The notes below the pieces were generated by a model. It saw only the letters and a program-made list of their open reading frames with translations, searched no databases and had not been told where the DNA came from. A stretch of DNA of 24,000 nucleotides from Youngiibacter fragilis 232.1. GTDB lineage: Bacteria; Bacillota; Clostridia; Clostridiales; Clostridiaceae. The stretch covers positions 2,828-26,827 of the forward strand of contig NZ_AXUN02000113.1 of assembly GCF_000495435.3 (NCBI RefSeq), written 5' to 3'. Position numbers and translations under genes: made by a program. Positions 2,242 through 18,461 of this stretch are shown here, piece after piece; the stretch's first letter is position 1; every line of letters starts with the position of its first letter.

Positions 2242-2337
2242 GACCAAAACACGAAGCATCAAATGGATATATTGTAGGTTGAGCATCTGCTGTACCTGAG
2301 GTCATCAGATGCGTGCATGATGATTGGAGGATTTTAA

Positions 2338-3120
2338 ATGTCAATACTTAACAAGCATGAAACAACACTTGGACAAAAACAGTATCATATAGCGCTGGCA
2401 CCTGGAGACATCGGAGAATACGTGCTTCTGCCTGGAGACCCAGCCAGATCTGACCGTGTAGCCAAATATCTCGATAATGGAGTGCTCATGGCGAACAACC
2501 GCGAGCACAGGACCTTCACCGGAACCTACAAGGGAATAAAGATAAGTGTCACATCGACCGGAATGGGATGTCCGTCAGCAGCGATCGCTGCGGAAGAGCT
2601 CATCAACATAGGCGCAAAGACGCTGATAAGGATAGGAAGCTCAGCGGCGCTTGATCCCAGGATCAATATCGGAGACCTGATGATAAGCACTTCATCAATG
2701 AAGAATGAAGGAACCTCGAAATTCTATGTTCCAGATTGCTTCCCAGCGGCACCTGATTTTGAGTTTACACACGAACTTATTATGACAGCCAAGGAAATGA
2801 TGGATGAAAGTGAACAAAAAGTATATATTGGAGTTAGTGCAACTGATGATGCGTTCTATGGCGAAACACCTGAATTCCTAGAGAGCCTGAGAAAGCTCAA
2901 GGTCATGAATATAGAGATGGAAGCATCAGCACTCTATACAATAGGACACCTAAGGGATGTAAGGGTAGCATGCATATGCGGCTGTTCGGGAAATCTCACA
3001 AACAGCGAAGTAATCTACACCAAAAAGAACGAAAGGCTTGCTGAAGCCTGGGATAAGGAAATCCAGGTAGTACTGGAAACAATAGCAAGGTTCGAGGAAG
3101 CAAAAAAAGCTAAAAAATAA
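2338..3120 (+). CDS. Nucleoside phosphorylase, PNP_UDP_1 / uridine phosphorylase family (non-canonical base pocket)
   Basis: LPGDPARSDRVA...NREH...STGMGCPSAAIAAEELINIG...LIRIGS...NIEMEASAL aligns by eye along the length of E. coli Udp. A GGAGG RBS lies upstream. The Udp FYPGQER segment is FYGETPE here (2854-2874). Confidence 0.85.
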   Translation: MSILNKHETTLGQKQYHIALAPGDIGEYVLLPGDPARSDRVAKYLDNGVLMANNREHRTFTGTYKGIKISVTSTGMGCPSAAIAAEELINIGAKTLIRIGSSAALDPRINIGDLMISTSSMKNEGTSKFYVPDCFPAAPDFEFTHELIMTAKEMMDESEQKVYIGVSATDDAFYGETPEFLESLRKLKVMNIEMEASALYTIGHLRDVRVACICGCSGNLTNSEVIYTKKNERLAEAWDKEIQVVLETIARFEEAKKAKK

Positions 3121-3155
3121 CATCGGAATTCGATTGATCAATTAAGGAGAGTCAC

Positions 3156-3899
3156 ATGGGAGAAAGAATAGGACAGGAAGATAGAGGAAAGACGCCGGTT
3201 TTTGTAGCAGTCTACGACCGGTTATATGAAATGGTGACTAATGGAACCTATCCTGCTGGGAAAGCACTCCCGCCGGAGCCGAAGCTTGCTGCCCTGCTTG
3301 ACGTAAGCCGTGAAACACTCCGTAAAGCCATGAGGCTCCTTGAAGAGGACGGACTTCTGGAGAAAGTGAAGGGTAAAGGGAATTTTGTTGTGGACCTTAA
3401 CAAACCAGGGGTTTCAAGTCTGGAAAAGCTCGGGAACCCCGTCCGCAAATGCATACAGGTGCCAATTGACGAGGATGTTGAAGTGGAAGTGCGCCTGCAG
3501 TCATCAAGCGATTACGAGCAAAAGCTTTTCAATCGTGAGACGAAGACTGCACTTGCGATTGACAGGTGGTATAGGAGCAACGGAAAGATAGTCGCCTATT
3601 CGCTGACACTTGCACCGATAGAATCAGTTCTGACTCTTGGACTTGACCTTTCAAACAAGTCCGAGGTGCTTGATTTCCTGGAGAACACGGCTTACGAGAT
3701 TGCTAGCCGTGCCCATATCAAGGTGAAGACAACCTGGGTAGGAAAGTTCATAAGCGACCGTTATGTACTTAGCGAGGATGAAGAACTGAGCCTCATACAG
3801 GAGAACCTCTATACTGAAGATGAATTTACACTTCTGATCCACAACAAGCACTACATATTGCCTGAAGTCTGTTCGATCGAGATCAATGCGACGCATTGA
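3156..3899 (+). CDS. GntR-family transcriptional regulator (HutC-like, C-terminal UTRA-type effector domain)
   Basis: N-terminal winged HTH (LPPEPKLAALLDVSRETLRKAMRLLEEDGLLEKVKGKGNFV). 247 aa. AAGGAGA RBS. Paralogous in position and sequence to 17658-18461. Confidence 0.85.
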   Translation: MGERIGQEDRGKTPVFVAVYDRLYEMVTNGTYPAGKALPPEPKLAALLDVSRETLRKAMRLLEEDGLLEKVKGKGNFVVDLNKPGVSSLEKLGNPVRKCIQVPIDEDVEVEVRLQSSSDYEQKLFNRETKTALAIDRWYRSNGKIVAYSLTLAPIESVLTLGLDLSNKSEVLDFLENTAYEIASRAHIKVKTTWVGKFISDRYVLSEDEELSLIQENLYTEDEFTLLIHNKHYILPEVCSIEINATH

Positions 3900-3946
3900 C
3901 CAAAGCGATGATCTGAACATTCTGGCGGAATTGGAGAGAGGTAAGG

Positions 3947-5299
3947 ATGGATAATACACTACTGATAAAAAATATAAGGCATCTCGTGACCTGCGATGAC
4001 AAGGATCGCATCCTTGAGGATACCAACCTTTTTGTAAGGGATGGAGTCATCGTATCTATAGGGGACTCACAGCCTGAGGCATCCAGAGTCATAGACGGCT
4101 CGGACCTTGCGGTATATCCGGGACTAGTGAACACGCATCACCACCTGTACCAGATACTGACGAGAAATCTGCCTCAGGTACAGAACCTTGAACTGTTCGA
4201 CTGGCTGACAAAGCTCTACCAGATATGGAAGAACCTGACAACTGACGCCATCTATGACAGCTCAATGGCAGGCATGGGTGAACTTGCGAAATTCGGATGC
4301 AGCACTGTGTTCGACCACCATTATGTTTTCCCGAAGGAAAGCAATGATTTCCTGTCAGCTCAGTTTGAAGCGGCAGGAAAACTCGGAGTCAGGATGGCAG
4401 TATCCAGAGGAAGCATGGACCTGAGCGAAAAGGATGGCGGCCTTCCACCTGATTCGGTTGTTCAGACTATCGATGAAATACTCAGAAGTTCAGAGAGAGC
4501 CGTAAACCAGTTCCATGACCCGAAGGAATACTCAATGAAACAGATTGTGCTTGCACCATGCTCACCCTTCAGCGTAACAGGAGACCTCATGAAGGAGTCA
4601 GCGAAGCTTGCAAGGGACCTTAAGGTAAGGCTCCATACCCATCTGGCGGAGACAATGGATGAAGAGGTCTATCTGAAGGAGAAGCTTGGCATAAGGCCGC
4701 TTGAATATATGGAGAGACTTGGCTGGATCGGTTCCGATGTGTGGTTTGCTCATGGCATCCACTTCAATACCGATGAACTGAAGCATCTTGCTGAGACAGG
4801 TACCGGAGTAGCTCATTGTCCCGCATCAAACATGAAGCTTTCATCAGGAGTAGCAAGGATACCTGAGATGCTGGCATTAGGGGTTCCGGTAGGCCTGGCA
4901 GTAGATGGCAGTGCCAGCAATGATGGTTCAAGCCTCATGGAGGAAATGAGGATAGCATACCTTCTTCACAGGCTAACCTCAGGAGACAAGGCTCCAAGCG
5001 GATACGAAATACTGAAGATAGCTACCAAAGGAAGTGCCAGGTTACTTGGACGACCTGAGCTGGGACATCTTGCCCCAGGTATGGCAGCTGATTTCTTTGC
5101 AGTAAAGGAAAGCCGGCTTGAATTTGCAGGAGCTGCCTTTGATGTCAGTAGCATGCTGTCAACAGTCGGAATCAAGGCTCCTGTGGACTATACGGTAGTT
5201 GCAGGAAAAGTCATAGTCGACAAAGGGATACTTGTGGGTGTGGATGAAGAGGCCCTTACAAGGCGGATCGCTAAGCACTCAAAAGGGATGATGCAGTAG
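3947..5299 (+). CDS. Amidohydrolase-superfamily aminohydrolase, 8-oxoguanine deaminase / chlorohydrolase-like (COG0402 group)
   Basis: Metal-binding NTHHHLYQ near the N-terminus. RGSMDLSEKDGGLPPDSVVQ, HTHLAET, HGIH and the DGSASND aspartate are in the canonical order for this deaminase subgroup. 450 aa. Confidence 0.8.
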   Translation: MDNTLLIKNIRHLVTCDDKDRILEDTNLFVRDGVIVSIGDSQPEASRVIDGSDLAVYPGLVNTHHHLYQILTRNLPQVQNLELFDWLTKLYQIWKNLTTDAIYDSSMAGMGELAKFGCSTVFDHHYVFPKESNDFLSAQFEAAGKLGVRMAVSRGSMDLSEKDGGLPPDSVVQTIDEILRSSERAVNQFHDPKEYSMKQIVLAPCSPFSVTGDLMKESAKLARDLKVRLHTHLAETMDEEVYLKEKLGIRPLEYMERLGWIGSDVWFAHGIHFNTDELKHLAETGTGVAHCPASNMKLSSGVARIPEMLALGVPVGLAVDGSASNDGSSLMEEMRIAYLLHRLTSGDKAPSGYEILKIATKGSARLLGRPELGHLAPGMAADFFAVKESRLEFAGAAFDVSSMLSTVGIKAPVDYTVVAGKVIVDKGILVGVDEEALTRRIAKHSKGMMQ

Positions 5300-5330
5300 A
5301 AACATGCATATGAATACAAAGACTGAACAG

Positions 5331-5354
5331 GAAGCGTGGTCTTGGCCACGCTTC
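5331..5354 (+). other. 9-bp perfect RNA hairpin between the amidohydrolase and the first hydrolase gene (possible weak terminator or mRNA stabiliser)
   Basis: GAAGCGTGG-tcttgg-CCACGCTTC followed by ttcttct. It lies inside the 5' extension of the ORF-track model 5336-6400, which argues for the 5378 start. Confidence 0.4.
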
Positions 5355-5377
5355 TTCTATCAGAGCTGGAGGAAACG

Positions 5378-6400
5378 ATGTACGAAAGAAATAGAAAAAA
5401 AGTGATCCTTGATGTAGATACGGGTTCGGATGATGCTATAGCCATAATGGTGGCACTGAAGTCAGAAAAGCTGAAGGTCGAAGGGATCTGCACAGTCTGG
5501 GGTAACCTTGGAGTAGAGCAGACCACGTTCAATACGCTTGCGGTATGCGAAGTACTGAACATGGATGTGCCTGTCTATGCCGGGTGTCCGCATAGCATGG
5601 TGAAGGACCTGACACCTGGACGTGTTCCTGAAAGTGACATAAAACCTATAATAATAGATGGCAGGGAGCTTAGCCTTCATAGTGAGAGGTTAAGCGGATT
5701 GCCTGATACAAATAAGACCAGGGAAGCACTCCACGCGGTTGAGTTCTATCATAAGTACCTGAAGGAAACCACCGAACCTGTGACAATAGTCGCGGTAGGT
5801 CCCCTCACAAATCTTGGATTCCTGTTCAGGATGGCTCCTGAGCTTGCTGATAAGGTAGATGAACTGATAATAATGGGTGGAGGGGTTGAAGTGTCCAATG
5901 TCAGCGAAGGCGGTGAAGCCAATGTCTGGCATGATCCCGAGGCTCTCCAGATCATCCTTGAAGCCGGACTGAATCCGCTTCTTGTGACCCTTGATGCAAC
6001 ATTCTCCGTTCCGCTTACAGACTCGGATTGCGATGTGCTTGAATCGCTGAATACCTTCGAAGGAAGGTTCGCAGCCAGCGTGGTTCGCCAGAGGATAGAA
6101 TATGAGTCCGTGAAGCATGCGACAAGGGGAGCCTGGTCTCCTATCCACGATGCCCTCGCAGCATGCGCTTGCATCGACAGATCCGTCCTTACAGAGGTAT
6201 TGACTGAGAACTGCAGGGTGGAGTGCACCGGCATATGTGACGGTGAACTGCTCCTTGACAGGAGGGCAAAGCCTGCGTCTGCCAATGCAACGATTGCTGT
6301 AAAAGCTGACAAGGATAAGTTTTTTGGGATGCTTTGCAGCCTGTTTTCAGGTAATGGAAGGGAATCCCTGAAATCTCACGAGGAGGAAATCACGGCTTAG
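5378..6400 (+). CDS. Nucleoside hydrolase (IU-NH family, ribonucleoside N-ribohydrolase)
   Basis: N-terminal DVDTGSDDAIAI (DxDxxxDD Ca-binding fingerprint). Also GNL...NTL, GPLTN, a conserved NVWHDPEA and a later HD. I prefer the ATG at 5378 (GGAGGA 6 nt upstream) over the GTG at 5336. Confidence 0.85.
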   Translation: MYERNRKKVILDVDTGSDDAIAIMVALKSEKLKVEGICTVWGNLGVEQTTFNTLAVCEVLNMDVPVYAGCPHSMVKDLTPGRVPESDIKPIIIDGRELSLHSERLSGLPDTNKTREALHAVEFYHKYLKETTEPVTIVAVGPLTNLGFLFRMAPELADKVDELIIMGGGVEVSNVSEGGEANVWHDPEALQIILEAGLNPLLVTLDATFSVPLTDSDCDVLESLNTFEGRFAASVVRQRIEYESVKHATRGAWSPIHDALAACACIDRSVLTEVLTENCRVECTGICDGELLLDRRAKPASANATIAVKADKDKFFGMLCSLFSGNGRESLKSHEEEITA

Positions 6401-6417
6401 TCCATGAATCAATACAT

Positions 6418-7392
6418 ATGAAAAAGAAAGTGATCCTAGACGTTGATACAGGTTCGGATGATGCGATCGCCATCATGCTTGCAATGCTATCACCGGAAAT
6501 CGAGGTCCAGGCCATATGCACCTGCAGCGGCAATGTGGACATAGGACATACCACTGACAACACTTTAAGGCTTCTCTCGAGAATGGGAAGGAACATTCCG
6601 GTATATCGGGGGCTCCCTGAACCTCTGGTCAAAAAGCTCCATAATGAGAGAAGTGTTACGAAGAAGCTTGAGGCTGTCATAGACGGTAAGGTTGCCAGGA
6701 TGCATGACGACCAGCTGAATCTCCCTGATTCAATATACAGGGAGCAGGAGATACCTGCTGTCTTCTATTACAAGGAAGCGCTGACAAATGCGGAGGACCC
6801 GCTTAATATAATAACAACCGGACCGTTGTCGAATCTCGCCACAGTGCTTTCACTCTGGCCGGATCTCGCAGGCAGGATAGGCAGCCTGACCATTATGGGC
6901 GGAGGACACAAGATATACAACAATAACTATGCCGAAGGAAACTTCTGGCATGACCCGGAAGCGGCCCAGATAGTTCTGAATTCAGGTATAGTGCCAACAC
7001 TGGTGCCGCTTGATGCAACCCACCAGGCAATAATAACAAGTGATGAAATCGAAGTGCTGAGGAGCCAGGGCAATTTCTGCAGCGAATTTGCGGCAGGACT
7101 TCTGAAACAGCGCATGAAGCTCCATACGGCAAACCAGCCGCTGCATCTTCCTGATTCAGCAACCATGCATGATGTTGTAGCTGTTGCAGCCTTCCTTGAT
7201 CCAGAGGTGTTGATGGATGTCAGGGATGTACGCTGCGCTATTGGATTTACAGGCTCTGCCGAAGGACACTGTGCCATAGACAGGAGGGAATCCAGGGAAA
7301 AGCCAAATTGCCGTTTCGCAATGTCAGCTGACAGGGAAAGGTTCGTGAAGAGATTCCTTGAAACCTTCGCCAAAGCAAAGGACATACAGTAG
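6418..7392 (+). CDS. Nucleoside hydrolase (IU-NH family), tandem paralog of the preceding gene
   Basis: Has the same KKVILDVDTGSDDAIAIM N-terminus, plus GNV...NTL, GPLSN, NFWHDPEA and MHD. 324 aa. Confidence 0.85.
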   Translation: MKKKVILDVDTGSDDAIAIMLAMLSPEIEVQAICTCSGNVDIGHTTDNTLRLLSRMGRNIPVYRGLPEPLVKKLHNERSVTKKLEAVIDGKVARMHDDQLNLPDSIYREQEIPAVFYYKEALTNAEDPLNIITTGPLSNLATVLSLWPDLAGRIGSLTIMGGGHKIYNNNYAEGNFWHDPEAAQIVLNSGIVPTLVPLDATHQAIITSDEIEVLRSQGNFCSEFAAGLLKQRMKLHTANQPLHLPDSATMHDVVAVAAFLDPEVLMDVRDVRCAIGFTGSAEGHCAIDRRESREKPNCRFAMSADRERFVKRFLETFAKAKDIQ

Positions 7393-7439
7393 GAGATATT
7401 CCAACAAGAACTGACAAATTTGTAATTAAGGAGGTACCC

Positions 7440-8330
7440 ATGAAGATAGTAGTTGTAGGGAGCCTGAACATGGACTACATTTTGCAGGTTCCGCATATCC
7501 CGAAAGAAGGCGAGACCATCCTTTCAACAGAAACAGATACATCTCTGGGAGGCAAGGGCCTGAATCAGGCTGTTGCAGCTGCCCGTTCGGGCGCCGAGGT
7601 AGCGATTATAGGAGCCATCGGTGAGGATGAAGATGGCAAAATCATGAAGGAACTCCTGGTGAAGGAAGGGATTGACCATGAAGGGCTTGATGAACAGCCA
7701 GGGCCTTCAGGCAAGGCATACATATCCATAGATGCAAAGGGTCAGAACACCATCATAGTATCTCCGGGAGCGAATTTCAGGCTTACAGAAGGATGGGTCG
7801 ACGAGCATAGGAAAGTTTTAGAGGATGCTGAGTACTGCATCATGCAGATGGAGGTACAGCTTCCCGTAATCTATTCGACGCTTAGGCTGTGCAGGGAAAT
7901 GGGAGTTAAGGTAATATTCAATCCCGCGCCTGTGAATGCCGCATTCGACAGAAGCTATCTTGGGTTTGTCGACTATCTTGTCGTCAACGAGACAGAACTC
8001 ATACTTCTGAGCGGAGGCGAGGAGGATCCTGAGAAGGCCATATCGAAGCTGCTGGCTGAGGGCGTAAGGAACATAATCTACACCATGGGGTCAGACGGGT
8101 CCAGATTCTGCAGCAGGGAGCTTGACATCAGGATACCTGTTTACAAGGTGAAGGCTGTGGATACGACTGCCGCAGGCGATACATTCATCGGTGCTTTTGC
8201 CAGCCAGTTCGATGGCAGCAACCATACCGAAGCGATGACCTACGCCTCAAGGGCAGCGGCACTTGCTGTCACCAGGGAAGGCGCCATAGGCTCGATACCG
8301 AGGAAGGAAGAGGTTGACCGGATGGCCTGA
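7440..8330 (+). CDS. rbsK: Ribokinase (PfkB family)
   Basis: MKIVVVGSLNMDY, GGKGLNQAVAAAR and the C-terminal DTTAAGDTFIGAF signature with a following TREGA anion-hole region. AAGGAGG RBS. Confidence 0.9.
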   Translation: MKIVVVGSLNMDYILQVPHIPKEGETILSTETDTSLGGKGLNQAVAAARSGAEVAIIGAIGEDEDGKIMKELLVKEGIDHEGLDEQPGPSGKAYISIDAKGQNTIIVSPGANFRLTEGWVDEHRKVLEDAEYCIMQMEVQLPVIYSTLRLCREMGVKVIFNPAPVNAAFDRSYLGFVDYLVVNETELILLSGGEEDPEKAISKLLAEGVRNIIYTMGSDGSRFCSRELDIRIPVYKVKAVDTTAAGDTFIGAFASQFDGSNHTEAMTYASRAAALAVTREGAIGSIPRKEEVDRMA

Positions 8331-8503
8331 GCCCAGTAGAAATGCCGGAATTGTGCAACTATGGAAAAAGGACTTGTTTTCGCAAAAAAAGCTGAAAATA
8401 AGTCCTTTTTTGTGCCATGTGGCATATTCTTATACCGTCTGCAATTGTTATCATATAGTCAATACAACGGGGAATTGATAATATAACCATTATGGAGGGA
8501 AAC

Positions 8504-10024
8504 ATGAAAAAAGACCTTGAAACACTGATCCAGCAGGCACAGCAGATTGCTGCAAATTCCGCACTTACCCACGAGCAGGCTACAAACAGCCTTGCTTCAC
8601 TTCCTGGACAGTTTGCGAACGTGTTCGATTTTCCTGAAGGATTCGAGGAAATGCTCGAAGAGGGACTGCTCTGCAACCTTAGTGAAGGATTTTTGCCATA
8701 TGCCCCGAGATACATACTGCCTGATTACCAGAAGCTGATGGATGAAGGCTGCCAGTTCCTTAGGCTGAAGCCGCCGACGACACTTTCTGAAGCCATACTG
8801 ACACTTGAGATATTCTACAGGCATGTGCCGTCAGTGACCCATTATCCGGTTTACCTTGGCAGGGTTGACAAGATGCTTGAGCCCTTCATAGACGGTGTAA
8901 GCGAAGAAGAGGCTAGGCGTGAGATAAAGAACTTCCTGTTCTTCCTTTCAAGGAGCATTCCTGATTCGTACTGCCACATGAACATAGGGCCTGAAGAGAC
9001 AAAGGCCGGCAACTACATACTGGATGCCGAGATGGAGCTTCAGGAAGCCATCCCTTCGATCACCATGCTTTACGATGAAAAGGTAACCTCCGATGATTTC
9101 TCAGAGAAGGCACTGAGCTGCGCGCAGCTTTGCGCAAAGCCAAGCTTTGCCAACTACAACGATTATCAGGAAGCCAATCCTTTCCCGATAGGAATCGCAA
9201 GCTGCTACAACGCACTGCCTCTTGCTGGAGGAGCGTTTACGCTCTCAAGGGTTATGATCAGCAGGATTGCTGACAAGGTCAATAACAGCGATGAATTCTT
9301 CGAGTTCCTTCCAAAGGCTGTGAACACTCTTTGCACATTTATGGACGAGAAGATCAGGTACCTTGTGGAGGACAGCCATTTCTTCACCACGAACTTCCTC
9401 GTGAAGGAAGGCTTCATAAAGCTTGAGAACTTCACAGGCATGGTTGGAATAGTTGGCCTGAACGAGTGCGTGAATACGCTCCTTGCAAAGGATGGAATTG
9501 ATGGAAGGTATGCCCAGTGCAAGGAAGCAGATGATCTGTCGCACAGGATACTTGCTGCAATGAACCAGCATTTGAATTCATATGAATCAAAATACTGCGA
9601 TGTTACAGGGAACCACTTCCTTCTTCATGCTCAGGTAGGGATAGCGGAGGACATCGGCATCACCCCGGGAATCCGCATAGCAATCGGCGAGGAGCCGGAC
9701 CTCTATACTCACCTCAAGCATGAAAACAAGTTCCAGAAGTACTTTCCGAGCGGAGTCGGTGACATATTCCCCTTTGATGAGACTGCAAAGAACAACGTGG
9801 GAGCCATACTTGACATAGTAAAGGGAAGCTTTTCACAAGGAATGCGTTATTTCTCAACCTACTCCGATACCTGCGACGTTGTAAGGGTAACAGGCTACCT
9901 TGTAAAGAAGTCTGACATAGAGAAGCTTTCAAGGGGCGAGGCAGTAGGACAGGCCAATGCCACATGGGGATACCTGGCATCGAAGAACCAGCATGCCCTT
10001 GAGCGCAAGGTAGAGTCCCTATGA
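8504..10024 (+). CDS. yjjI: YjjI-family glycyl radical enzyme (function unknown)
   Basis: About 506 aa, short for a glycyl radical enzyme (GRE). C-terminal glycyl-radical fingerprint VVRVTGYLV, with the Gly codon at 9893-9895. Candidate Cys loop GIASCYNALPLAGG, with the Cys codon at 9203-9205. ATGA overlap with a dedicated activase. The ATG at 8504 has a GGAGG 5 nt upstream; the ORF-track start at 8492 has none. Confidence 0.75.
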   Translation: MKKDLETLIQQAQQIAANSALTHEQATNSLASLPGQFANVFDFPEGFEEMLEEGLLCNLSEGFLPYAPRYILPDYQKLMDEGCQFLRLKPPTTLSEAILTLEIFYRHVPSVTHYPVYLGRVDKMLEPFIDGVSEEEARREIKNFLFFLSRSIPDSYCHMNIGPEETKAGNYILDAEMELQEAIPSITMLYDEKVTSDDFSEKALSCAQLCAKPSFANYNDYQEANPFPIGIASCYNALPLAGGAFTLSRVMISRIADKVNNSDEFFEFLPKAVNTLCTFMDEKIRYLVEDSHFFTTNFLVKEGFIKLENFTGMVGIVGLNECVNTLLAKDGIDGRYAQCKEADDLSHRILAAMNQHLNSYESKYCDVTGNHFLLHAQVGIAEDIGITPGIRIAIGEEPDLYTHLKHENKFQKYFPSGVGDIFPFDETAKNNVGAILDIVKGSFSQGMRYFSTYSDTCDVVRVTGYLVKKSDIEKLSRGEAVGQANATWGYLASKNQHALERKVESL

Positions 10025-10860
10025 AAGCCCCTGTCAACCACATCATAGACTCAAGCTTCATAGACGGTCCTGGAAACAGGACGGTGATATTCTTCCAGGG
10101 CTGCAACTTCAACTGCAAGTATTGCCACAATCCGGAGACAATAAACCTATGCATCAATTGCGGCCTTTGCGTACCGGGATGCCCTTCGGGAGCACTTGAG
10201 ATGGTTGAAGGCAAGGTTGAATGGGATGAAAAAAGGTGCACTGATTGCGGGGCATGCTACAAGAACTGCCCTTACTCGGCGACACCCAGAGTGAAGGAAA
10301 TGACGGTTGAAGGTGTAATGGAGAGGGTGAAGGCAAATATGCCATTCATCAGGGGGATCACAGTTTCCGGAGGTGAGTGCTCCCTTCAAAGGGATTTTGT
10401 TGTGGAACTCTTCAGGCAGGCTAAGGCGATTGGCTTGGGCACACTCATGGACAGCAACGGGGGACTTCCAATAGCCTTCGATGAGGAACTAATGTCTGTG
10501 ACAGACGGTGTGATGCTGGATATAAAGGGGACTGACCAACTCTTCCATATGGAGCTTACCGGCCGAAGCAATGACATGGTACTTAACAATGCCGTGGAAC
10601 TGGCAAGGCTGGGGAAGCTCACAGAGATAAGGACAGTGGTGCTGCCGGACAATCCGTTCAGCCGTCTCACAGTTGTAAATGCAGGAAATATCCTGGAACC
10701 ATTCCTCAGATGCAGCAAGGTTACCTACAGGCTCATAAAGTTCAGACCAATCGGTGTCAGGGGAGAGGCTCTGACCTGGAAAATGCCGGGACAGGCCCAG
10801 ATGGAGGAGCTCAAGTCACTTGTGGAGGACAAGGGATTCCACAGGGTCATCATAACCTGA
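10021..10860 (+). CDS. yjjW: YjjW-type glycyl radical enzyme activase (radical SAM with two extra ferredoxin-like 4Fe-4S motifs)
   Basis: CNFNCKYC (CX3CX2C, 10102-10125), then CINCGLCVPGC and CTDCGACYKNC, then GITVSGGEC (SAM-binding GGE). 279 aa. The start overlaps the yjjI stop. Confidence 0.85.
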   Translation: MKAPVNHIIDSSFIDGPGNRTVIFFQGCNFNCKYCHNPETINLCINCGLCVPGCPSGALEMVEGKVEWDEKRCTDCGACYKNCPYSATPRVKEMTVEGVMERVKANMPFIRGITVSGGECSLQRDFVVELFRQAKAIGLGTLMDSNGGLPIAFDEELMSVTDGVMLDIKGTDQLFHMELTGRSNDMVLNNAVELARLGKLTEIRTVVLPDNPFSRLTVVNAGNILEPFLRCSKVTYRLIKFRPIGVRGEALTWKMPGQAQMEELKSLVEDKGFHRVIIT

Positions 10861-10904
10861 CCCCATGTTGAATCTAGGGTAGCAAGACTTATAAAAAATA
10901 AATG

Positions 10905-10950
10905 GCACTGTCACAGAAGGCTCATGACCTCTGGACAGTGCTTTTCTTTT
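10905..10950. terminator. Rho-independent terminator between the convergent yjjW and crp-like genes (probably bidirectional)
   Basis: GCACTGTC...GACAGTGC outer stem (10905-10912 / 10934-10941) with an inner CAGA-GG/CC-TCTG extension. CTTTTCTTTT follows it and an A-run (ATAAAAAATAAA) precedes it. Confidence 0.7.
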
Positions 10951-10963
10951 CCTTGATGAAAAA

Positions 10964-11686
10964 TCAGCCAAATCCATGCTCTTTAGTGTAAGAATCATAC
11001 CTGTCCCTGAGCCTCTGGAATGCGGAGCCTGTGACGACTATCTTGCCATGGCTTCTCTTAATAAGGCCTTCTTCCTCAAGCTGTTCGAGTTGGCGGTAAA
11101 GGGTGCGGCTGCTTATGTTCATAAGCTCTGCGATTTCAGCCTTGTTTGCCTCGATCACATGAGGAAGTAGCTTTCCGGAGCAATTCTCGAACAGGAAGAT
11201 TATCAGGTTCTCATATGGTGTGTTAAGGGTAAGCTGGTCGGTCCTATCAAGCATCCTGGCTGTGAACCTTGCAAGAAATGACAAGGCTGCCAGTGCGATC
11301 TCATGGTTGTTCCTGATTGCACGGAGAAAGAAGGCTGGGCGGATCACCGCGCAATGTGCGCGGGTTTCTGCCTGGAGTGTTACTCCATGCCCCTTTGTTC
11401 CTGTAAGGGACTCATAAAGGCCATAGATCTGGGGAGCCTCTGATATGCCGCTCCTTATGCTCATGCCGCCTGAGCTGTATTTGAAGACCGAAACCTGACC
11501 TTCGATAAGTACCATGAGTCTCTCAACCGGGGCGCCGATATAGGAGAGATATTCACCCTTCTCGAACCATATAAACTGAATGTCCTCATAGGCAACAGTA
11601 TTCAGGAAGGTTTTATCGAGTTTGACTTTGATGTCTCTGGACATTACGGCTTCAAGGAGCCTGGCCAGCTTCTCCTCATTTGTCAC
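10964..11686 (-). CDS. Crp/Fnr-family transcriptional regulator (cNMP-binding-like domain plus C-terminal HTH)
   Basis: 240 aa. C-terminal HTH KAEIAELMNISSRTLYRQLEQLEEEGLI. GTG start with an AGGAGG 8 nt upstream. Only two Cys (AHCAV, ENCSG), so there is no FNR-type Fe-S ligand set. Confidence 0.8.
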   Translation of the reverse strand: MTNEEKLARLLEAVMSRDIKVKLDKTFLNTVAYEDIQFIWFEKGEYLSYIGAPVERLMVLIEGQVSVFKYSSGGMSIRSGISEAPQIYGLYESLTGTKGHGVTLQAETRAHCAVIRPAFFLRAIRNNHEIALAALSFLARFTARMLDRTDQLTLNTPYENLIIFLFENCSGKLLPHVIEANKAEIAELMNISSRTLYRQLEQLEEEGLIKRSHGKIVVTGSAFQRLRDRYDSYTKEHGFG

Positions 11687-12115: not shown

Positions 12116-13210
12116 ATGAAGAAAACGATTGCCATCCTTGGTACATTGCTGCTGTCCGCCTCAATTTTAGCAGGCTGCGGAAGCTCAGCGCCAACAACTC
12201 CTACCGCAGGCCCCACCACACCGTCCCAGTCACAGACTGCAGCTCCAAAGGACTTCAAGGCAGGCATAATATTCACTGAAGCTGGCCTTGGAGGACAATC
12301 CTTCAATGACCTTGCATTCGAAGGAGTCAAGAAGGCTGCCGCTGACCTTGGCATCAAATATGACTATGTTGAGCCGAAGTCAGTTTCTGACGAGGCGATC
12401 GTACAGGAAGACATGGCCTCATCAGGTGAGTATGACATAATCATATGCGTGGGCGCTGAACAGATCGATGCACTTAAGATGGTGGCTGCAAACTATCCTG
12501 AGCAGAAGTTTGCACTTATAGACGCCAATCTTGAACTGCCGAACGTCGCATGCTATACGAGCAAAGAGCAGGAAGGTTCTTTCATGGCTGGAGCACTCGC
12601 TGCACTCATAAAGCAGGAGAAGGCAACAGACAAGGTTGGAGATGGAAAGACAGTCGGTGTCATGGTTGGAGTGAATAATCCGCTTCTTAACAGATTTGTT
12701 GCAGGCTATACTGCAGGTGCCAAGTACATCAACCCTGAGCTTGAAGTGCTTGTTGACTATGTCGGAGGCTTCGGAGACCCAACTACTGCAAAGAACATAG
12801 CCACTACCTTCAATTCGAAGGGTGCTGATGTAATATTCCATGCTGCAGGAGCTTCAGGAATGGGACTCTTCCAGGCAGCACAGGAAAAGGGGTTCGTTGC
12901 TATCGGTGTCAACCTCAACCAGAATGGTGTCGCTCCTGACAACATAGTTGCCAGCATGATGAAGAGGGTAGACTCCAGTGCATATAATGCAATTGAAACC
13001 ACTCTGAACGGGGAATTCAAGGCCGGGCTCAAGGTTATGGGACTTGCTGATGAAGGCGTAGGCCTCAATATGGAAGGAAGCAACATAAAGCTGCCTGAAA
13101 GCGTGACAAAGAAGCTTGATGAGATCAAAGAGCTTGTGGTTTCAGGGAAACTGGTTATACCAGCTGCGATCGAAGAGGTCAATCCATTCCTGGAAGCGAA
13201 CAAGAAATAA
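12116..13210 (+). CDS. BMP-family ABC transporter substrate-binding lipoprotein (PnrA/NupN/Med-like, nucleoside-binding)
   Basis: Signal peptide with lipobox ILAGC (Cys codon 12176-12178) and a Thr/Pro-rich linker. BMP-family body (AGIIFTEAGLGGQSFND, GVNNPLLNRFVAGY). GGGGG RBS. Confidence 0.9.
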   Translation: MKKTIAILGTLLLSASILAGCGSSAPTTPTAGPTTPSQSQTAAPKDFKAGIIFTEAGLGGQSFNDLAFEGVKKAAADLGIKYDYVEPKSVSDEAIVQEDMASSGEYDIIICVGAEQIDALKMVAANYPEQKFALIDANLELPNVACYTSKEQEGSFMAGALAALIKQEKATDKVGDGKTVGVMVGVNNPLLNRFVAGYTAGAKYINPELEVLVDYVGGFGDPTTAKNIATTFNSKGADVIFHAAGASGMGLFQAAQEKGFVAIGVNLNQNGVAPDNIVASMMKRVDSSAYNAIETTLNGEFKAGLKVMGLADEGVGLNMEGSNIKLPESVTKKLDEIKELVVSGKLVIPAAIEEVNPFLEANKK

Positions 13211-13337
13211 TCTGACAATACTGATGGGCGGTTTGGGCTCCGGAGTGTTCTGCTGGCTGCAGGATAATTGAGGATATCCCGTACCGCCTGTTTCTGAATT
13301 AAGGCAGCCATACTATACCAAGAACGGAGGGAAACTG

Positions 13338-14843
13338 ATGCCGATAATTGACATGAGGCAGATAACGAAGCGTTTTCCGGGTGTTGTCGCAAACGACAAG
13401 GTGGATTTTCAGGTAGAAAAGCAGGAGATACATTGCCTTCTGGGTGAGAACGGATCCGGAAAGACTACGCTTATGAATGTGCTCTTTGGCCTGTACCATC
13501 CGGAAGAGGGAGAAATATACGTAAAGGGAGAGAAGGTGCGCATAAGCAATCCCAATGATGCCTACAAGCTGGGCATAGGAATGGTGCACCAGCACTTCAT
13601 GCTGGTAAACCAGATGACTGTGCTTGAAAACATCATTCTGGGCAATGAGTGCGGGAGCTTCTTCCTGGACAGGAAAGAGAGCGAAGCTGCGGTCAGGGAC
13701 CTGATTACGAGGTTCAACTTCAAGCTTGACCTCAACCAGAAGATAGCTGACCTTTCAGTCGGAATGAAGCAGAGGGTTGAAATCGTGAAGACCCTTTATC
13801 GCGGGGCCGATATAATCATCCTTGATGAGCCCACTGCGGTCCTTACTCCTCAGGAGGTGGCAGACCTTTTTGTCATTCTCCATCAGCTGCGCAGAGATGG
13901 TAAAACTATCATATTCATAACCCACAAGCTTAATGAGACCATGGAGATGTCTGACAGCGTGACAGTCCTCAGGAAGGGTGTCAAGGTTGCCGACCTGAAG
14001 ACCAGGGATGTGAATCAGAACGACCTTGCGGCACACATGGTGGGCAGACAGGTTGAGCATATTGTGAGTGACAGTGTGGAAAGCTATGGTGAGGTTGTGC
14101 TTTCGATAAAGGACCTGGTCTTGAATGACAAGACAAGGATTCCTGTGAACCTTTCTGTCCGCGCAGGAGAGATCCTTGGCATAGCAGGGGTAGAAGGCAA
14201 CGGACAGCAGGAGCTTGAGGAGCTTATCATTGGAACCATGCCGGTGCGTTCCGGTAAAATCGAGATCAACGGGCAGGACATTACCAGCAAGCCTGTAAAG
14301 GACAGGAAGGACCTTGGTATAGGCTACATTCCAGCGGACAGGCACAAGAACGCCATCCTCAGCAACTTCTCAATAATTGAGAATTACCTGCTCGGTTACC
14401 ACAAGGACAAGGACTATATAAAGAATGGATTCATAGACTTCAGGAAGCTGGAGAGCGACGCTGACAGGTTCGTCACGGAATTCAATGCGAAGGTTGCCGA
14501 CATCGGAGACCCCATTTCTTCACTCTCCGGAGGAAACCAGCAGAAGATTGTCTTAAGTCGTGAGGTAAGCCATGATCCTATACTGGTTATTGCTGCACAA
14601 CCTGTGAGAGGGCTTGACATAGGCGCCATCGAGTTCATACATAAGACGCTTCTGAGACTGAGGCATGAGAAGAAGGCAATCCTGCTCATATCTGCAGAGC
14701 TTTCGGAGGTAATGAACCTTTCTGACAGGATAGCGGTACTTTATGAAGGCCAGGTAAGCGCAGAATTCCCAAGAGGCAAGTACAACCAGGAGCAGATCGG
14801 ACTGTTCATGGCAGGAAGAACAGAGAAGGAGGTTGAAGTATGA
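13338..14843 (+). CDS. ABC transporter ATP-binding protein with two fused ATPase domains
   Basis: Walker A GENGSGKTT, signature LSVGMKQR, Walker B IIILDEPT, and a second-domain signature LSGGNQQK. 501 aa. GGAGGG RBS. Confidence 0.92.
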   Translation: MPIIDMRQITKRFPGVVANDKVDFQVEKQEIHCLLGENGSGKTTLMNVLFGLYHPEEGEIYVKGEKVRISNPNDAYKLGIGMVHQHFMLVNQMTVLENIILGNECGSFFLDRKESEAAVRDLITRFNFKLDLNQKIADLSVGMKQRVEIVKTLYRGADIIILDEPTAVLTPQEVADLFVILHQLRRDGKTIIFITHKLNETMEMSDSVTVLRKGVKVADLKTRDVNQNDLAAHMVGRQVEHIVSDSVESYGEVVLSIKDLVLNDKTRIPVNLSVRAGEILGIAGVEGNGQQELEELIIGTMPVRSGKIEINGQDITSKPVKDRKDLGIGYIPADRHKNAILSNFSIIENYLLGYHKDKDYIKNGFIDFRKLESDADRFVTEFNAKVADIGDPISSLSGGNQQKIVLSREVSHDPILVIAAQPVRGLDIGAIEFIHKTLLRLRHEKKAILLISAELSEVMNLSDRIAVLYEGQVSAEFPRGKYNQEQIGLFMAGRTEKEVEV

Positions 14844-15898
14844 GCGAAACAGCAAAAAAACGGTCTAAACTGAAGGCACTGTCAGCACTTGGAGATTTCG
14901 GAAGCTCACTGCTCAGCGTCTCCATAGCGCTGGTACTTGGAGCCGTTATCATTCTGGTAATCGGGGAGGATCCCATAGAGGCATATACCGCACTACTTCA
15001 GGGTGCGCTCGGTAACGCAAGGAGCATAGCAAACACCTTCAGCAAGAGCATACCTCTTGCATTCACCGGCCTGGCTGTGGCAATGGCCAACAGGGGAGGT
15101 ATGCTGAACATCGGAGCTGAAGGTCAGCTTCACGCAGGTGCCATGGCATCAGTGCTGGTTGCACTGGCTCTGCCAGGACTACCTGTGGCTGTCCTTCTGC
15201 CTCTCTGCATAATTACAGGAGTTGCTGCTGGAATGCTTGTCGGATTTATCCCGGGATACTTCAAGGCAAAGAAGCAGACAAGCGAGGTAATAGTGGCAAT
15301 AATGCTGAACTATATCGTGACTCTCTTCATGTCATTCCTCGTCAATGGACCGTTCAAGGCTGAGGGTTCCGTATCGCAGACAAATGCGATATCCGAGGGC
15401 CTGATGCTTACGAAGCTTGTCGGGAATTCACAGTTAACCACTGCCCTGTTCATACTCCTTGCGGTTGCGGCAGCCCAATATATCTTCCTTTGGAAGAGCG
15501 CTGCGGGCTTCCAGCTTAGGGCTGTGGGAAGCAATCCTTCGGCATCAGTATCTGCGGGAATGAATGCAAAGAAACTGATGATATTCGCAATGGCACTGAG
15601 CGGAGGCATAGCTTCACTTGCAGGAGTGACCGAGGTCATGGGTAAGTACGGGAGATACATCGAAGGGTTTTCACCCTCCTTCGGATTCACTGGTATAGCC
15701 GTGGCTATACTCGGAAGGAATCATCCCGGTGGTGTGCTCCTGACATCACTGCTTTTCGGAATACTTGATACCGGAGCGCTCAGGATGGGAAGGGTCACCA
15801 ATGTCTCTGCCAACATAATTGTAGTGATGCAGAGCCTTGTAATACTTCTTGTTTCAGCACCTGAAATCGCGAAACTGATAAGAAGGAGGAGTCGATGA
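14840..15898 (+). CDS. ABC transporter permease (NupP/YufP-like)
   Basis: 352-aa hydrophobic protein with NIGAEGQ and GFTGIAVA. ATGA overlap with the ATPase stop. Paralog of 273-1325. Confidence 0.9.
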   Translation: MSETAKKRSKLKALSALGDFGSSLLSVSIALVLGAVIILVIGEDPIEAYTALLQGALGNARSIANTFSKSIPLAFTGLAVAMANRGGMLNIGAEGQLHAGAMASVLVALALPGLPVAVLLPLCIITGVAAGMLVGFIPGYFKAKKQTSEVIVAIMLNYIVTLFMSFLVNGPFKAEGSVSQTNAISEGLMLTKLVGNSQLTTALFILLAVAAAQYIFLWKSAAGFQLRAVGSNPSASVSAGMNAKKLMIFAMALSGGIASLAGVTEVMGKYGRYIEGFSPSFGFTGIAVAILGRNHPGGVLLTSLLFGILDTGALRMGRVTNVSANIIVVMQSLVILLVSAPEIAKLIRRRSR

Positions 15899-15899
15899 A

Positions 15900-16805
15900 A
15901 TGGAACTTTTCTCTAGGATGATAACATTGACACTGCAGCTTTCAGTTCCGCTTGTACTCGGCGCCATGTGCGGCACCATTGCGGAAAGGGGAGGAATAAT
16001 ACTTCTCGGTGTCGAAGGCCTCATGCTTCTCGGTGCATTTACAGGAGTCCTTGGTTCGCACCTTTCCGGAAACGCATATGTCGGACTCCTGTTTTCAATA
16101 GTTGGCGGCGGAATATTCGGATACCTGTACACCCTGTTCTGCCTTAAGCTCAAGGCACACCAGTCTGTTGTAGGTGTTGGAGTCAATATGTTCGCCAGCG
16201 GAATAACCGCCGTGCTGCTGAAGGTTTTCTGGAACAGGGAAGGCATGAGCGATCCTGTTGCCTCCATACCGAATGTGACGGTCCCAGTGATTTCGGAGAT
16301 ACCGGTTATTGGCATGCTGTTCAAGGATCAGTCCCCTTACCTGTACCTCATGATACTTATAGTCGCGACTGTATGGGTGGTATTTTACCGAACCAAGGTC
16401 GGCCTGAGATATAGGGCCATCGGAGAGCAGCCGTTCGCAGTGCAGACATCAGGAATCAATGTAAATAAGTACAGGTATGTAGCCATGGTCTTTGCAGGTG
16501 TAGTAGCCGGAGTAGGCGGTTCATTCCTGTCGCTTTCCCAGAACAACCTGTTCGTAATGGACATGACTGCAGGCAGGGGCTTCATGGGACTAGCGGCAAA
16601 TATTTTCGGAGGATGGAATCCAATAGGGTCTTTCCTTGCAGGCATGGTATTCGCTGTGGCGCAGACAATCAGGTTCTACGCCTCTGATATCAAGATCCCT
16701 ATCCAGTTCATTCAGATGATGCCATATCTCCTGACTCTCTTCATATTGCTGTTTGTCGGCAAGAAGGCAAAGGGTCCGGAAGCTCTGGGCAAGCTGGTAA
16801 AGTGA
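15900..16805 (+). CDS. ABC transporter permease (NupQ/YufQ-like)
   Basis: 301-aa hydrophobic protein with GRGFMGLAANIFGG. It starts 2 nt after the previous stop. Paralog of 1330-2241. Confidence 0.9.
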   Translation: MELFSRMITLTLQLSVPLVLGAMCGTIAERGGIILLGVEGLMLLGAFTGVLGSHLSGNAYVGLLFSIVGGGIFGYLYTLFCLKLKAHQSVVGVGVNMFASGITAVLLKVFWNREGMSDPVASIPNVTVPVISEIPVIGMLFKDQSPYLYLMILIVATVWVVFYRTKVGLRYRAIGEQPFAVQTSGINVNKYRYVAMVFAGVVAGVGGSFLSLSQNNLFVMDMTAGRGFMGLAANIFGGWNPIGSFLAGMVFAVAQTIRFYASDIKIPIQFIQMMPYLLTLFILLFVGKKAKGPEALGKLVK

Positions 16806-16810
16806 TGATA

Positions 16811-16839
16811 TTGACAACTGAACATGGTCATATAATAAT
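16811..16839 (+). promoter_or_regulatory. Candidate internal promoter upstream of the second nucleoside phosphorylase
   Basis: A perfect TTGACA (16811-16816) and a perfect TATAAT (16831-16836) are only 14 bp apart. The alternative is TTGACA-N17-AATAAT. The spacing is suboptimal in either reading. Confidence 0.35.
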
Positions 16840-16857
16840 GTGTAATGGAGGATAACA

Positions 16858-17631
16858 ATGCAGGATAATCAGAAGATGATGCATATAGCCCTTTCAAAGG
16901 ACCAGGTAGGCAAGTACGCCTTCCTGCCGGGGAGTCCTGAAAGGGTTCCAAGAATTGCCGCTTTCCTGAGAGATTCAGAAAAGGTCGCGCAGAACAGGGA
17001 GCATACCAGTTACAGGGGTTATATCGGTGATACCCCTGTTATGGTGGTCTCCACAGGAATGGGAGGTCCTTCAACCGCGATATGCCTTGAGGAGCTCGTC
17101 AAGCTCGGAGTGACTACCTTCATAAGGATAGGCACCTGCGCCTCCACATCTGCACTCGTCGAGCGCGGTGACATAGTGATACCAACAGGTGCGGTCAGGA
17201 TGGAAGGGACCTCTTCGCACTACCTTCCCCTTGAATACCCATCTGTACCTGACTATTCCCTTGTTAAGAAGATAGAGGAGGCGGCAATCGCGCAGGGTTT
17301 CAGGTACAACACGGGAGTAACGATAACAAAGGATTCCTTCTATACGCAGACTGAACCTGAGACAAGGCCTATCGGCTATGAGCTCATTAACAAATGGACT
17401 GCATATGAAAAGGGCGGGGCCACCAGCACAAGCATGGAGGAAGCACTGCTGTTCATAGCAGCCACAAGCCTTGGAGTCAGGGCTGCCTCGGCACTCATTT
17501 CAGCTACGAACTACAAGAGCTACGACCAGGACAATATACTGTCACCCCTGGAAATTGAGAAGAGGGTGATAATTACAGGTGTGGAAGCCATGAGATTGGT
17601 AATAGAGGAAGACAAGAGAAAATCCAGGTAG
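16858..17631 (+). CDS. Nucleoside phosphorylase, PNP_UDP_1 / uridine phosphorylase family (second paralog)
   Basis: LPGSPERVPRIA...NREH...STGMGGPSTAICLEELVKLG...FIRIGT is Udp-like. The FYPGQER segment is FYTQTEP here (from 17338). GGAGGA RBS. Confidence 0.85.
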   Translation: MQDNQKMMHIALSKDQVGKYAFLPGSPERVPRIAAFLRDSEKVAQNREHTSYRGYIGDTPVMVVSTGMGGPSTAICLEELVKLGVTTFIRIGTCASTSALVERGDIVIPTGAVRMEGTSSHYLPLEYPSVPDYSLVKKIEEAAIAQGFRYNTGVTITKDSFYTQTEPETRPIGYELINKWTAYEKGGATSTSMEEALLFIAATSLGVRAASALISATNYKSYDQDNILSPLEIEKRVIITGVEAMRLVIEEDKRKSR

Positions 17632-17657
17632 TGGCATAATCTATAGCAAATAAGGAT

Positions 17658-18461
17658 GTGTTTGAATTGGCACAGGTCACTTCAGTAACGGAAAAAGAAA
17701 GGAAGCTTCCTTTGTTCGTGGCTGCATACGAGACTATGTACAACAGGATAAAGGATGGGACGTATAAGCCCGGGGATAAGCTGCCAAGCGAAAGTGAGTT
17801 GTCTGTCGAGCTTGCGATAAGCAGAGGCACTCTAAGACAGGCTATGCTTCTACTTCAGGAGGACGGCCTTATAATGAACTATAAGGGTAAGGGAAGCTTT
17901 GTACTTGAAACAAACAAGGAACTGAGCACAGGGATAGAGAAGATCGTAAATCCCCTGATAACATGCAGCATCCAGCCCATTGACAAGGTAGTTACCGAGA
18001 TGCACTTCCAGCCGGCTACAGAACCTCATAAGAAGTTGTTTGACCTTCCTCAGTCATCGCTTGTATCCCGGGCTGAGTTCTCATACTTCATAAAGGACAA
18101 GGTAGTTGGATTCGCGCTGGTATTCATGCCTTATGACCTTCTGGTTGAGAACGGGGTGGCAATAGACGACAATGACGAGATTCACAGGTTCTACAACAGC
18201 TTTCTCACAACTGAAAGACTCAGCTGTGAAAGTGTACTGAGGATGGGATTTGCCCGGAAGTTGACAGCTGATAAGATGCATATTAAGGAAAAGGAACCGA
18301 TCCTCATAATGGAGGAGACATTCTATATGGGAAACCGGCCTTCAATGCAGCAGAAGATATTCTTCCTACCCGCGTACTATGAGTTGAAGATTCTAAGGTC
18401 AAATGACAGATATACCTCTAAGCAGGGTACACAGGGTCCGTTGTCATCTGATAAGCTCTAG
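17658..18461 (+). CDS. GntR-family transcriptional regulator (HutC-like)
   Basis: wHTH KLPSESELSVELAISRGTLRQAMLLLQEDGLIMNYKGKGSFV. Same position in the module as 3156-3899. The GTG start is uncertain by a few codons. Confidence 0.8.
   Translation: MFELAQVTSVTEKERKLPLFVAAYETMYNRIKDGTYKPGDKLPSESELSVELAISRGTLRQAMLLLQEDGLIMNYKGKGSFVLETNKELSTGIEKIVNPLITCSIQPIDKVVTEMHFQPATEPHKKLFDLPQSSLVSRAEFSYFIKDKVVGFALVFMPYDLLVENGVAIDDNDEIHRFYNSFLTTERLSCESVLRMGFARKLTADKMHIKEKEPILIMEETFYMGNRPSMQQKIFFLPAYYELKILRSNDRYTSKQGTQGPLSSDKL

Follow-up and report, generated by a model that had tools for sequence, protein, structure and literature searches.

The closest described relative of the gene pair examined here is YjjI/YjjW of Escherichia coli (b4380/b4379), a glycyl radical enzyme (GRE) with its activase. 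An August 2026 preprint still terms YjjI an uncharacterized putative GRE, and a June 2026 review of GREs mentions neither YjjI nor any nucleoside-acting GRE besides ribonucleotide reductase (RNR), so the statement in a first-pass annotation of our DNA that YjjI has no assigned substrate still holds. In the openly searchable literature we found no functional assignment for YjjI/YjjW (DUF3029, b4380) and no description of an association of YjjI with nucleoside importers. The only earlier proposal, made in 2011, placed YjjI in nitrogen metabolism on the basis only of its co-expression with FNR/NarP targets. Here we describe the yjjI-yjjW pair at positions 8504 to 10860 of a 24,000-nucleotide (nt) stretch of the Youngiibacter fragilis 232.1 genome (contig NZ_AXUN02000113.1, positions 2,828 to 26,827), hereafter the window, together with the neighbourhood of yjjI in related genomes.

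The window pair shares with its E. coli counterpart matches to the family hidden Markov models, the RxTGY and S-C-Y-N motifs, an overlapping downstream activase gene and nucleoside-catabolic neighbours. The settings differ: E. coli yjjI is divergent from and adjoins deoCABD and is under FNR, whereas the window pair lies between two blocks of PnrA-type importer, hydrolase and phosphorylase genes, beside a Crp-family regulator and a candidate palindromic operator. With the class III RNR NrdD, YjjI has in common an R-x-x-G-Y motif in the Gly loop, a finger-loop Cys and activation by a radical S-adenosylmethionine (SAM) partner; it differs in having no ATP-cone or allosteric N-terminus, no zinc site and no equivalents of NrdD C175 and M382. 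Unlike the NrdD partner NrdG, YjjW is a long activase with a ferredoxin insert, as found with the eliminases related to pyruvate formate-lyase (PFL), and is PFL-AE/CutD-like. We compared YjjI with a PFL-like set comprising choline trimethylamine-lyase, glycerol/propanediol dehydratase, hydroxyproline dehydratase and the sugar-phosphate enzymes PflD/YbiW. A single catalytic Cys, a Gly radical and an activase with two extra ferredoxin-type clusters are common to these eliminases and lyases and to YjjI, but YjjI is about 250-350 residues shorter and its Cys loop reads S-C-Y-N. The corresponding motif of PFL-like enzymes is G-C-x-E. The titles of PDB entries for PflD/YbiW indicate that orphan GREs of E. 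coli can act on sugar phosphates.

The features of the pair are as follows (window coordinates; aa, amino acids):

8492 or 8504 to 10024, forward strand: yjjI open reading frame (ORF), 506 aa, YjjI-family GRE
9203-9205, forward strand: codon of Cys234, presumed thiyl-radical site and sole invariant Cys
9884-9898, forward strand: glycyl motif R461-V-T-G464-Y465, read from the translation
9893-9895, forward strand: GGC codon of Gly464, presumed radical glycine, read from the sequence
10021-10860, forward strand: yjjW, 279-aa radical-SAM activase, with an ATGA overlap with yjjI at 10021-10024
10102-10125, forward strand: radical-SAM CX3CX2C motif of YjjW (C28/C32/C35), from the translation
10150-10182, forward strand: first ferredoxin-type CX2CX2CX3C motif of YjjW (C44/C47/C50/C54), from the translation
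10237-10269, forward strand: second ferredoxin-type CX2CX2CX3C motif of YjjW (C73/C76/C79/C83), from the translation

The window YjjI scored 613.4 bits against TIGR04040 (cutoff 498.3), covering profile positions 2-496 of 497, and 628.9 bits against PF11230 ('YjjI-like'); its closest match is the protein of Youngiibacter multivorans (94% identical). YjjW scored 350.8 bits against TIGR04041 (cutoff 250.2) and 148 bits against the general GRE-activase model TIGR02494, and the Pfam families Radical_SAM, Fer4_12, Fer4 and Fer4_7 match it over its Cys-motif stretches. We favour the ATG at 8504 as the start of yjjI, since a GGAGGG ribosome-binding site at 8494-8499 is placed for it (spacing 5 nt) and the closest homologues are 506 aa long; an alternative in-frame ATG lies upstream at 8492. 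From family identity it is virtually certain that 8504-10860 encodes a functional YjjI GRE and its YjjW activase, and the pair is intact and typical of its family, a known orphan. The first-pass annotation had read a 506-aa protein with RVTGY and a Gly codon at 9893-9895, an ATGA-overlapping activase with CX3CX2C and two CX2CX2CX3C motifs, and membership of the YjjI/YjjW family, and all of this was borne out, both proteins scoring above the curated cutoffs of their family models. Its remark that the protein is shorter than characterised GREs is likewise correct (506 aa against 534-715 for NrdD and 764-869 for PFL-like enzymes in solved structures). The family is compact: we found 624 representatives at E <= 1e-3 among 1.84 billion clusters at 50% identity, about 20 of them full length, and the clostridial and E. 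coli proteins are 38% identical. It is therefore likely that the family has one conserved function and that context can be transferred between genomes.

In alignments of 15 and of 59 YjjI sequences, R461, T463, G464 and Y465 are invariant, as is S233-C234-Y235-N236; no Cys besides Cys234, and no Met, is conserved throughout. The glycine of RVTGY, whose identity as the radical glycine had to be checked, aligns with Gly465 in the VRVTGYM motif of E. coli YjjI, and a 2026 preprint reports that this residue is labelled by a radical probe in vivo. An AlphaFold2 model of the window protein (pLDDT 94.1, pTM 0.92) places Gly464 at the tip of one beta-hairpin (strands 459-462 and 465-468) and Cys234 at the tip of another (strands 229-232 and 236-239); as modelled, this is the hallmark GRE arrangement.

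A YjjI profile searched against PDB sequences detected no relative of solved structure (best E 0.03), so that comparison of folds with Foldseek was needed. The top 23 PDB matches to the model were all NrdD (E 4.5e-17 to 6e-14, query-based TM-scores 0.60-0.74, 12-14% identity), and PFL-like GREs ranked below them. The NrdD-like ten-stranded GRE barrel of the model supports a related fold rather than family membership. At the sequence level the NrdD model TIGR02487 gave 29.9 bits, far below its cutoff of 326, and PF13597 (NrdD) gave a partial, weak match (residues 191-364, 41 bits). Neither PF02901 nor PF01228 matched the window YjjI at E <= 1e-3; some YjjI homologues bear a precomputed PF02901 match. 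An alignment of eight phage and E. coli NrdD sequences has as invariants C175, M382, C384 and the zinc-site residues C644/C647/C662/C665. Profile-profile alignment to it (probability 31%) pairs YjjI C234 with C384, Y70 with C175 and A232 with M382; an alignment made with hhalign to the single E. coli NrdD sequence misplaced the Cys by three residues, and the eight-sequence alignment corrected the register. The four-Cys zinc site that precedes the Gly loop in NrdD was not found in YjjI, whose residues 440-464 hold one non-conserved Cys. Judged from these sequence features, YjjI appears to use the same radical relay as NrdD and yet is not a member of the NrdD family.

We then took the genomic neighbourhood of yjjI as a guide to function. 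The loci comprised 80 YjjI loci (one per GTDB species), that of E. coli K-12 and two further gammaproteobacterial loci; the 80 are the closest relatives of the window YjjI, mostly Bacillota, out of at least 565 confirmed homologues (599 pattern matches). Neighbour families were defined by unbiased all-against-all clustering of all flanking ORFs in 82 loci. The PnrA-type transporter family was the commonest neighbour after YjjW (71 of 82 loci): its ABC ATPase was present in 43, the Bmp binding protein in 36 and ABC permeases in 34. There followed a Crp-family regulator (28 loci), PNP_UDP phosphorylase (22), an 8-oxoguanine-deaminase-like amidohydrolase (15), IU nucleoside hydrolase (12), GntR (11), DeoB (10), DeoC and cytidine deaminase (8 each) and ribokinase (5). 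Four neighbour clusters (c17, c23, c24 and c27) proved to be antisense ORF artefacts in GC-rich loci and were rejected; the nucleoside neighbours were therefore recounted by TBLASTN on 84 loci. By this count yjjW adjoins yjjI in 79 loci, a gene for nucleoside uptake or catabolism lies within 2.5 kb of yjjI in 52 and within 10 kb in 57, and a Bmp gene lies within 5 kb in 42 and at 5-10 kb in only 1. The first-pass annotation had put forward a nucleoside context, and the check on enrichment around YjjI homologues was strongly positive; the context holds across loci as an enrichment, but about a third of them have no nucleoside gene nearby.

The arrangements are varied and place the link at the level of operons. 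In many Lachnospiraceae yjjI-yjjW interrupts the genes of a PnrA-type nucleoside ABC importer, with that for the binding protein on one side and that for the ATPase on the other. In 14 loci the Bmp gene directly precedes yjjI; in 14 the gene after yjjW encodes the ABC ATPase (gaps of -4 to 149 nt), and in seven it encodes an IU hydrolase (gaps of -50 to 85 nt). In three Lachnospiraceae/Clostridia loci (our loci L047, L076 and L077) PNP and DeoB genes stand between yjjI and yjjW. In a gammaproteobacterial genome (L085, GCA_965119465.1) a NupC-family concentrative nucleoside transporter (6681-7931 of that locus; PF01773, PF07670, PF07662) is encoded on the same strand 70 bp upstream of yjjI. On a tree of YjjI sequences, five or more clades show the nucleoside association. 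From gene context we consider it quite likely that yjjI-yjjW is coupled to nucleoside uptake and breakdown.

Several minor observations were made on these loci. L047, L076 and L077 sit inside a Bmp-ABC operon, where the separation of GRE and activase is unusual, and in two of the three a Crp-family gene also lies in between. One Gemmiger locus (L041) has two YjjW-like activase genes. In Clostridium loci otherwise lacking nucleoside genes, genes identified by eye and by clustering as pseudouridine kinase-like (helix-turn-helix plus PfkB) and pseudouridine-5'-phosphate glycosidase-like lie 4-9 kb from yjjI (L035, 15696-17695; also L072 and L038). An OmpR-type response regulator (cluster c13) is found near yjjI in seven Bacillota loci (L039, L047, L020, L065, L050, L052 and L078), paired in L020, L039, L047 and L065 with a histidine kinase (c18). 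Association with the patatin-like YjjU, the TatD-like YjjV or the YjjG nucleotidase, seen in E. coli and two Clostridium loci, was considered and rejected as not conserved. An NCBI protein from a 2.9-kb contig (P0124, 574 aa) matches E. coli YjjI with 100% identity across 91% of the query and carries an extra DeoC/LacD aldolase domain (PF01791); it probably arose from an error of gene calling or assembly that spans the divergent yjjI and deoC genes.

Between the ribokinase gene and the Crp-family gene that flank the pair in the window we identified the following elements (bp, base pairs):

8365-8410, forward strand: terminator-like hairpin after ribokinase, stem of about 19 bp, 3' arm ending in a U-run
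8413-8424, no strand: palindrome TGCCA-TG-TGGCA, 12 bp, candidate operator, centre about 85 nt 5' of the yjjI ATG
10904-10942, forward strand: hairpin and T-run between the convergent yjjW and Crp-family genes, from a fold of 10861-10965
10964-11686, reverse strand: Crp/Fnr-family regulator with a domain resembling cyclic nucleoside monophosphate-binding domains and a helix-turn-helix (PF00027, PF13545), convergent with yjjW

Folding of 8331-8430 gave a minimum free energy of -35.1 kcal/mol (z = -5.3), and none of 200 shuffled sequences was as stable. A scan of consensus promoters and terminators gave nothing above chance and missed the 8365-8410 hairpin, whose loop is too long for it. The palindrome recurs with the regulator: where a Crp-family gene neighbours yjjI, 17 of 31 loci have a perfect TGNCA-NN-TGNCA upstream of yjjI, as compared with 1 of 50 where there is no such gene (Fisher p = 3e-8), and most of the remaining regulator-adjacent loci have palindromes with one mismatch. 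Within the window, 8413-8424 is the only match to this pattern at an intergenic promoter position. A second sequence, TGTCAGCTGACA at 7322-7333, fits a loose form of the pattern with its half-sites reversed and lies inside the second IU hydrolase gene; it is probably a chance match, since 13 of 100 shuffles also contained two sequences that fit. Where the gene order is a divergent Crp-family gene followed by yjjI-yjjW-IU hydrolase-Bmp-ABC, the importer operon is headed by the same palindromic operator. In E. coli the yjjI/deoC intergenic region contains CRP sites. The palindrome was not found in Lachnospiraceae loci with yjjI-yjjW embedded in a transporter operon, and the operator model is limited to loci of the divergent or adjacent-regulator type.

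The Crp-family homologue, where it neighbours YjjI, is usually divergent and immediately upstream. In the translation of 10964-11686 we found no FNR-type Cys cluster, and gene context suggests that its product is probably a dedicated regulator of yjjI-yjjW; on this model the ligand-binding protein would bind the 8413-8424 palindrome and so control the pair. PrfA-type operators resemble TGNCA-NN-TGNCA in their five-base half-sites, two-base spacer and Crp/Fnr-family protein. The PrfA-type box is 14 bp, TTAACA-NN-TGTTAA. The two differ in half-site sequence, and both the window operator and any PrfA kinship of the regulator are candidates. Downstream of yjjW the 10904-10942 hairpin has a 17-pair stem followed by UUUUCUUUU; with a z of only -2.0, which is weak evidence, it is a possible terminator shared by yjjW and the Crp-family gene. 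The hairpin at 8365-8410 and the palindrome suggest that yjjI-yjjW is separately controlled here and is not the mere tail of the ribokinase operon, and the pair probably forms a transcription unit by itself. It is doubtful that it is transcribed together with the nucleoside locus upstream, at the end of which the first-pass annotation had placed it.

Putting these lines together, we propose that YjjW, through its radical-SAM cluster and two auxiliary ferredoxin-type clusters, would cleave SAM and place a stable radical on Gly464. During turnover the radical would move from Gly464 to Cys234 on the opposing hairpin, and the Cys234 thiyl radical would take a hydrogen atom from the substrate. We infer this relay from the biochemistry of GREs, and the in vivo labelling of E. 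coli Gly465 (preprint) supports it. Because YjjI has no second redox Cys, no Met partner, no zinc ribbon and no allosteric N-terminus, we suggest that it is not a reductase; with the reducing pair absent, a reduction of the RNR type is unlikely. Instead, an imported nucleoside may supply the substrate: YjjI would act on its ribosyl or pentose (phosphate) part by a radical elimination or rearrangement that is redox-neutral, for example by loss of a 2'-substituent, or by C-O or C-N cleavage next to a hydroxyl-bearing carbon. We favour this chemistry over the others because it combines the NrdD-derived fold with the nucleoside neighbourhood. Taken by itself, the idea that YjjI derives its fold from class III RNR and performs redox-neutral rather than reductive chemistry on nucleoside ribosyl or pentose is tentative, with somewhat less than an even prospect of being right. 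We lean towards the explanation as a whole (family identity, a separately regulated unit, coupling to nucleosides and non-reductive ribosyl or pentose chemistry) as the rather probable one. The first-pass phrase 'an undescribed anaerobic branch of nucleoside degradation' is, judged from the genomic evidence, a well-motivated hypothesis. The more specific proposal that YjjI attacks the sugar of imported nucleosides in a GRE reaction not yet described, and opens an anaerobic route feeding DeoC and central metabolism, seems unlikely as matters stand; the reaction may take the form of an NrdD-style C2' elimination on a ribonucleoside or ribose phosphate, or of C-N or C-O cleavage of a modified nucleoside that resists hydrolysis.

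A number of points weigh against our explanation. The link between YjjI and nucleosides is one of gene context, 27 of the 84 loci are devoid of nucleoside genes out to 10 kb, and whole YjjI clades in Clostridium and the Peptoniphilaceae carry only Crp-YjjI-YjjW. The Proteus deo operon is not adjacent to yjjI. The locus counts are not independent events, because the loci are closest relatives that share ancestry, and distance decay within loci served as the sole, internal control in place of random-gene anchors. The mapping of residues between YjjI and NrdD comes from the low-probability profile alignment. The need for a radical step is not evident, as canonical nucleosides already have complete hydrolytic and phosphorolytic routes alongside. 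Finally, expression in E. coli, where yjjI is a direct FNR target, ties the gene to FNR, anaerobiosis and nitrate-regulated genes and not specifically to nucleosides.

Some of these points could equally mean that the nucleoside neighbourhood is incidental or only regulatory and that YjjI has an unrelated anaerobic function. The third of loci that lack nucleoside genes, the minimal conserved module of Crp-YjjI-YjjW, the FNR activation of E. coli yjjI and its co-clustering with nitrate-respiration genes, and the hairpin that separates yjjI from the upstream nucleoside genes in the window all speak for this. We nevertheless consider it improbable. Three unrelated nucleoside gene sets (the PnrA-type ABC importer, NupC and deoCABD) recur beside YjjI, and they do so in five or more clades of YjjI and in several phyla, in varied gene orders and with stop and start codons overlapping inside transporter operons; the steep decay of Bmp genes with distance (42 against 1) points the same way.

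A second alternative accepts the coupling to nucleosides and would make YjjI a ribosyl or pentose reductase, performing an RNR-like 2'-deoxygenation of a ribonucleoside, ribose 1-phosphate or ribose 5-phosphate with formate or a thiol, after which DeoC would cleave the resulting deoxyribose-5-phosphate to glyceraldehyde-3-phosphate and acetaldehyde. NrdD as the nearest fold, with the weak NrdD Pfam match, would suit such an enzyme, as would the presence of DeoC and DeoB in the same operon in Lachnospiraceae and next to yjjI in E. coli, and of ribokinase immediately upstream in the window. We regard it as distinctly improbable, since the protein is without a conserved second Cys or Met (NrdD C175 and M382 align with Tyr70 and Ala232), and no more than 8 of the 84 loci have DeoC close by.

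The released heterocycle is a third candidate substrate, with YjjI supplying an anaerobic radical step in the breakdown of purine or pyrimidine bases. Base catabolism is a part of nucleoside degradation that otherwise depends on O2 or molybdenum, which counts in favour, and the 8-oxoguanine-deaminase-like amidohydrolase co-occurs in 16 loci by TBLASTN, the window included. The best-conserved partners of YjjI, however, are importers and enzymes of glycosidic cleavage and pentose metabolism rather than base-degrading enzymes, no xanthine dehydrogenase or dihydropyrimidinase-type genes recur near it, and its fold is that of a ribose-acting enzyme. A GRE reaction on a purine or pyrimidine ring would, as far as we know, be without precedent, which counts against it. 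The June 2026 review lists no GRE acting on these rings. We judge action on the base to be very improbable. That YjjI is a spare or alternative class III RNR making deoxyribonucleoside triphosphates is scarcely credible and is largely refuted by sequence features already: the fold similarity and the weak PF13597 match are outweighed by a TIGR02487 score of 29.9 bits against a cutoff of 326, by the missing ATP-cone and specificity region, zinc ribbon and C175/M382 equivalents, by a PFL-AE/CutD-like activase with a ferredoxin insert in place of an NrdG-like one, and by a catabolic context of hydrolases, phosphorylases, DeoC and importers.

YjjI is the product of a conserved E. coli y-gene and is common in gut Lachnospiraceae, Oscillospiraceae and Christensenellaceae. 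The compactness of the family, which suggests one function, together with the conserved link to importers, PNP, IU hydrolase, DeoB and DeoC, narrows the search for its substrate to ribo- and deoxyribonucleosides, modified nucleosides, pentose phosphates and bases. The Crp-family regulator and its candidate operator offer a second, independent handle, because the effector of the regulator should point to the substrate. If non-reductive radical chemistry on the ribosyl group were correct, it would be a new reaction type and an evolutionary bridge between RNRs and catabolic GREs. A radical route for the sugar would parallel, for pentoses, the radical-mediated glycolysis recently found for PflD/YbiW, and would supply the missing function of an E. 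coli GRE that a preprint of 2026 still describes as uncharacterized.

The two blocks that enclose the pair, at 273 to 8330 and 12116 to 18461, comprise the following genes, all on the forward strand:

273-2241, forward strand: two BPD_transp_2 permeases of a PnrA/Bmp-type ABC system (NCBIfam/Pfam)
2338-3120, forward strand: PNP_UDP phosphorylase (NCBIfam/Pfam)
3156-3899, forward strand: GntR regulator (NCBIfam/Pfam)
3947-5299, forward strand: 8-oxoguanine-deaminase-like amidohydrolase (NCBIfam, 578 bits against a cutoff of 532)
5336 or 5378 to 6400, forward strand: first IU-type nucleoside hydrolase (NCBIfam/Pfam)
6418-7392, forward strand: second IU-type nucleoside hydrolase (NCBIfam/Pfam)
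7440-8330, forward strand: ribokinase, rbsK (310 bits against a cutoff of 300)
12116-13210, forward strand: PnrA/Bmp-type binding lipoprotein (PF02608 Bmp, 185 bits)
13338-14843, forward strand: ABC ATPase (ABC_tran)
14840-16805, forward strand: two permeases of the downstream block (BPD_transp_2)
16858-17631, forward strand: second PNP_UDP phosphorylase (PNP_UDP_1)
17658-18461, forward strand: second GntR (GntR match)

The importer, phosphorylase, deaminase, two hydrolases and ribokinase that had been named upstream on the same strand were thus all recovered with NCBIfam and Pfam. The stretches 273-3899 and 12116-18461 are paralogous modules, each ending in two BPD_transp_2 permeases, PNP_UDP and GntR. 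The Y. multivorans locus (L002) is syntenic with the window, without the upstream part that holds the permease, PNP and deaminase genes here. An Rfam scan of the window returned no riboswitch or other RNA family. At 20079-22889 the window encodes a further ABC transporter, with a PF04392-type binding protein. Homologues of its genes (clusters c98, c99 and ABC2) lie upstream of the YjjI operon in locus L071, and related sets (c40, c22 and ABC2) are present in L004, L009 and L069.

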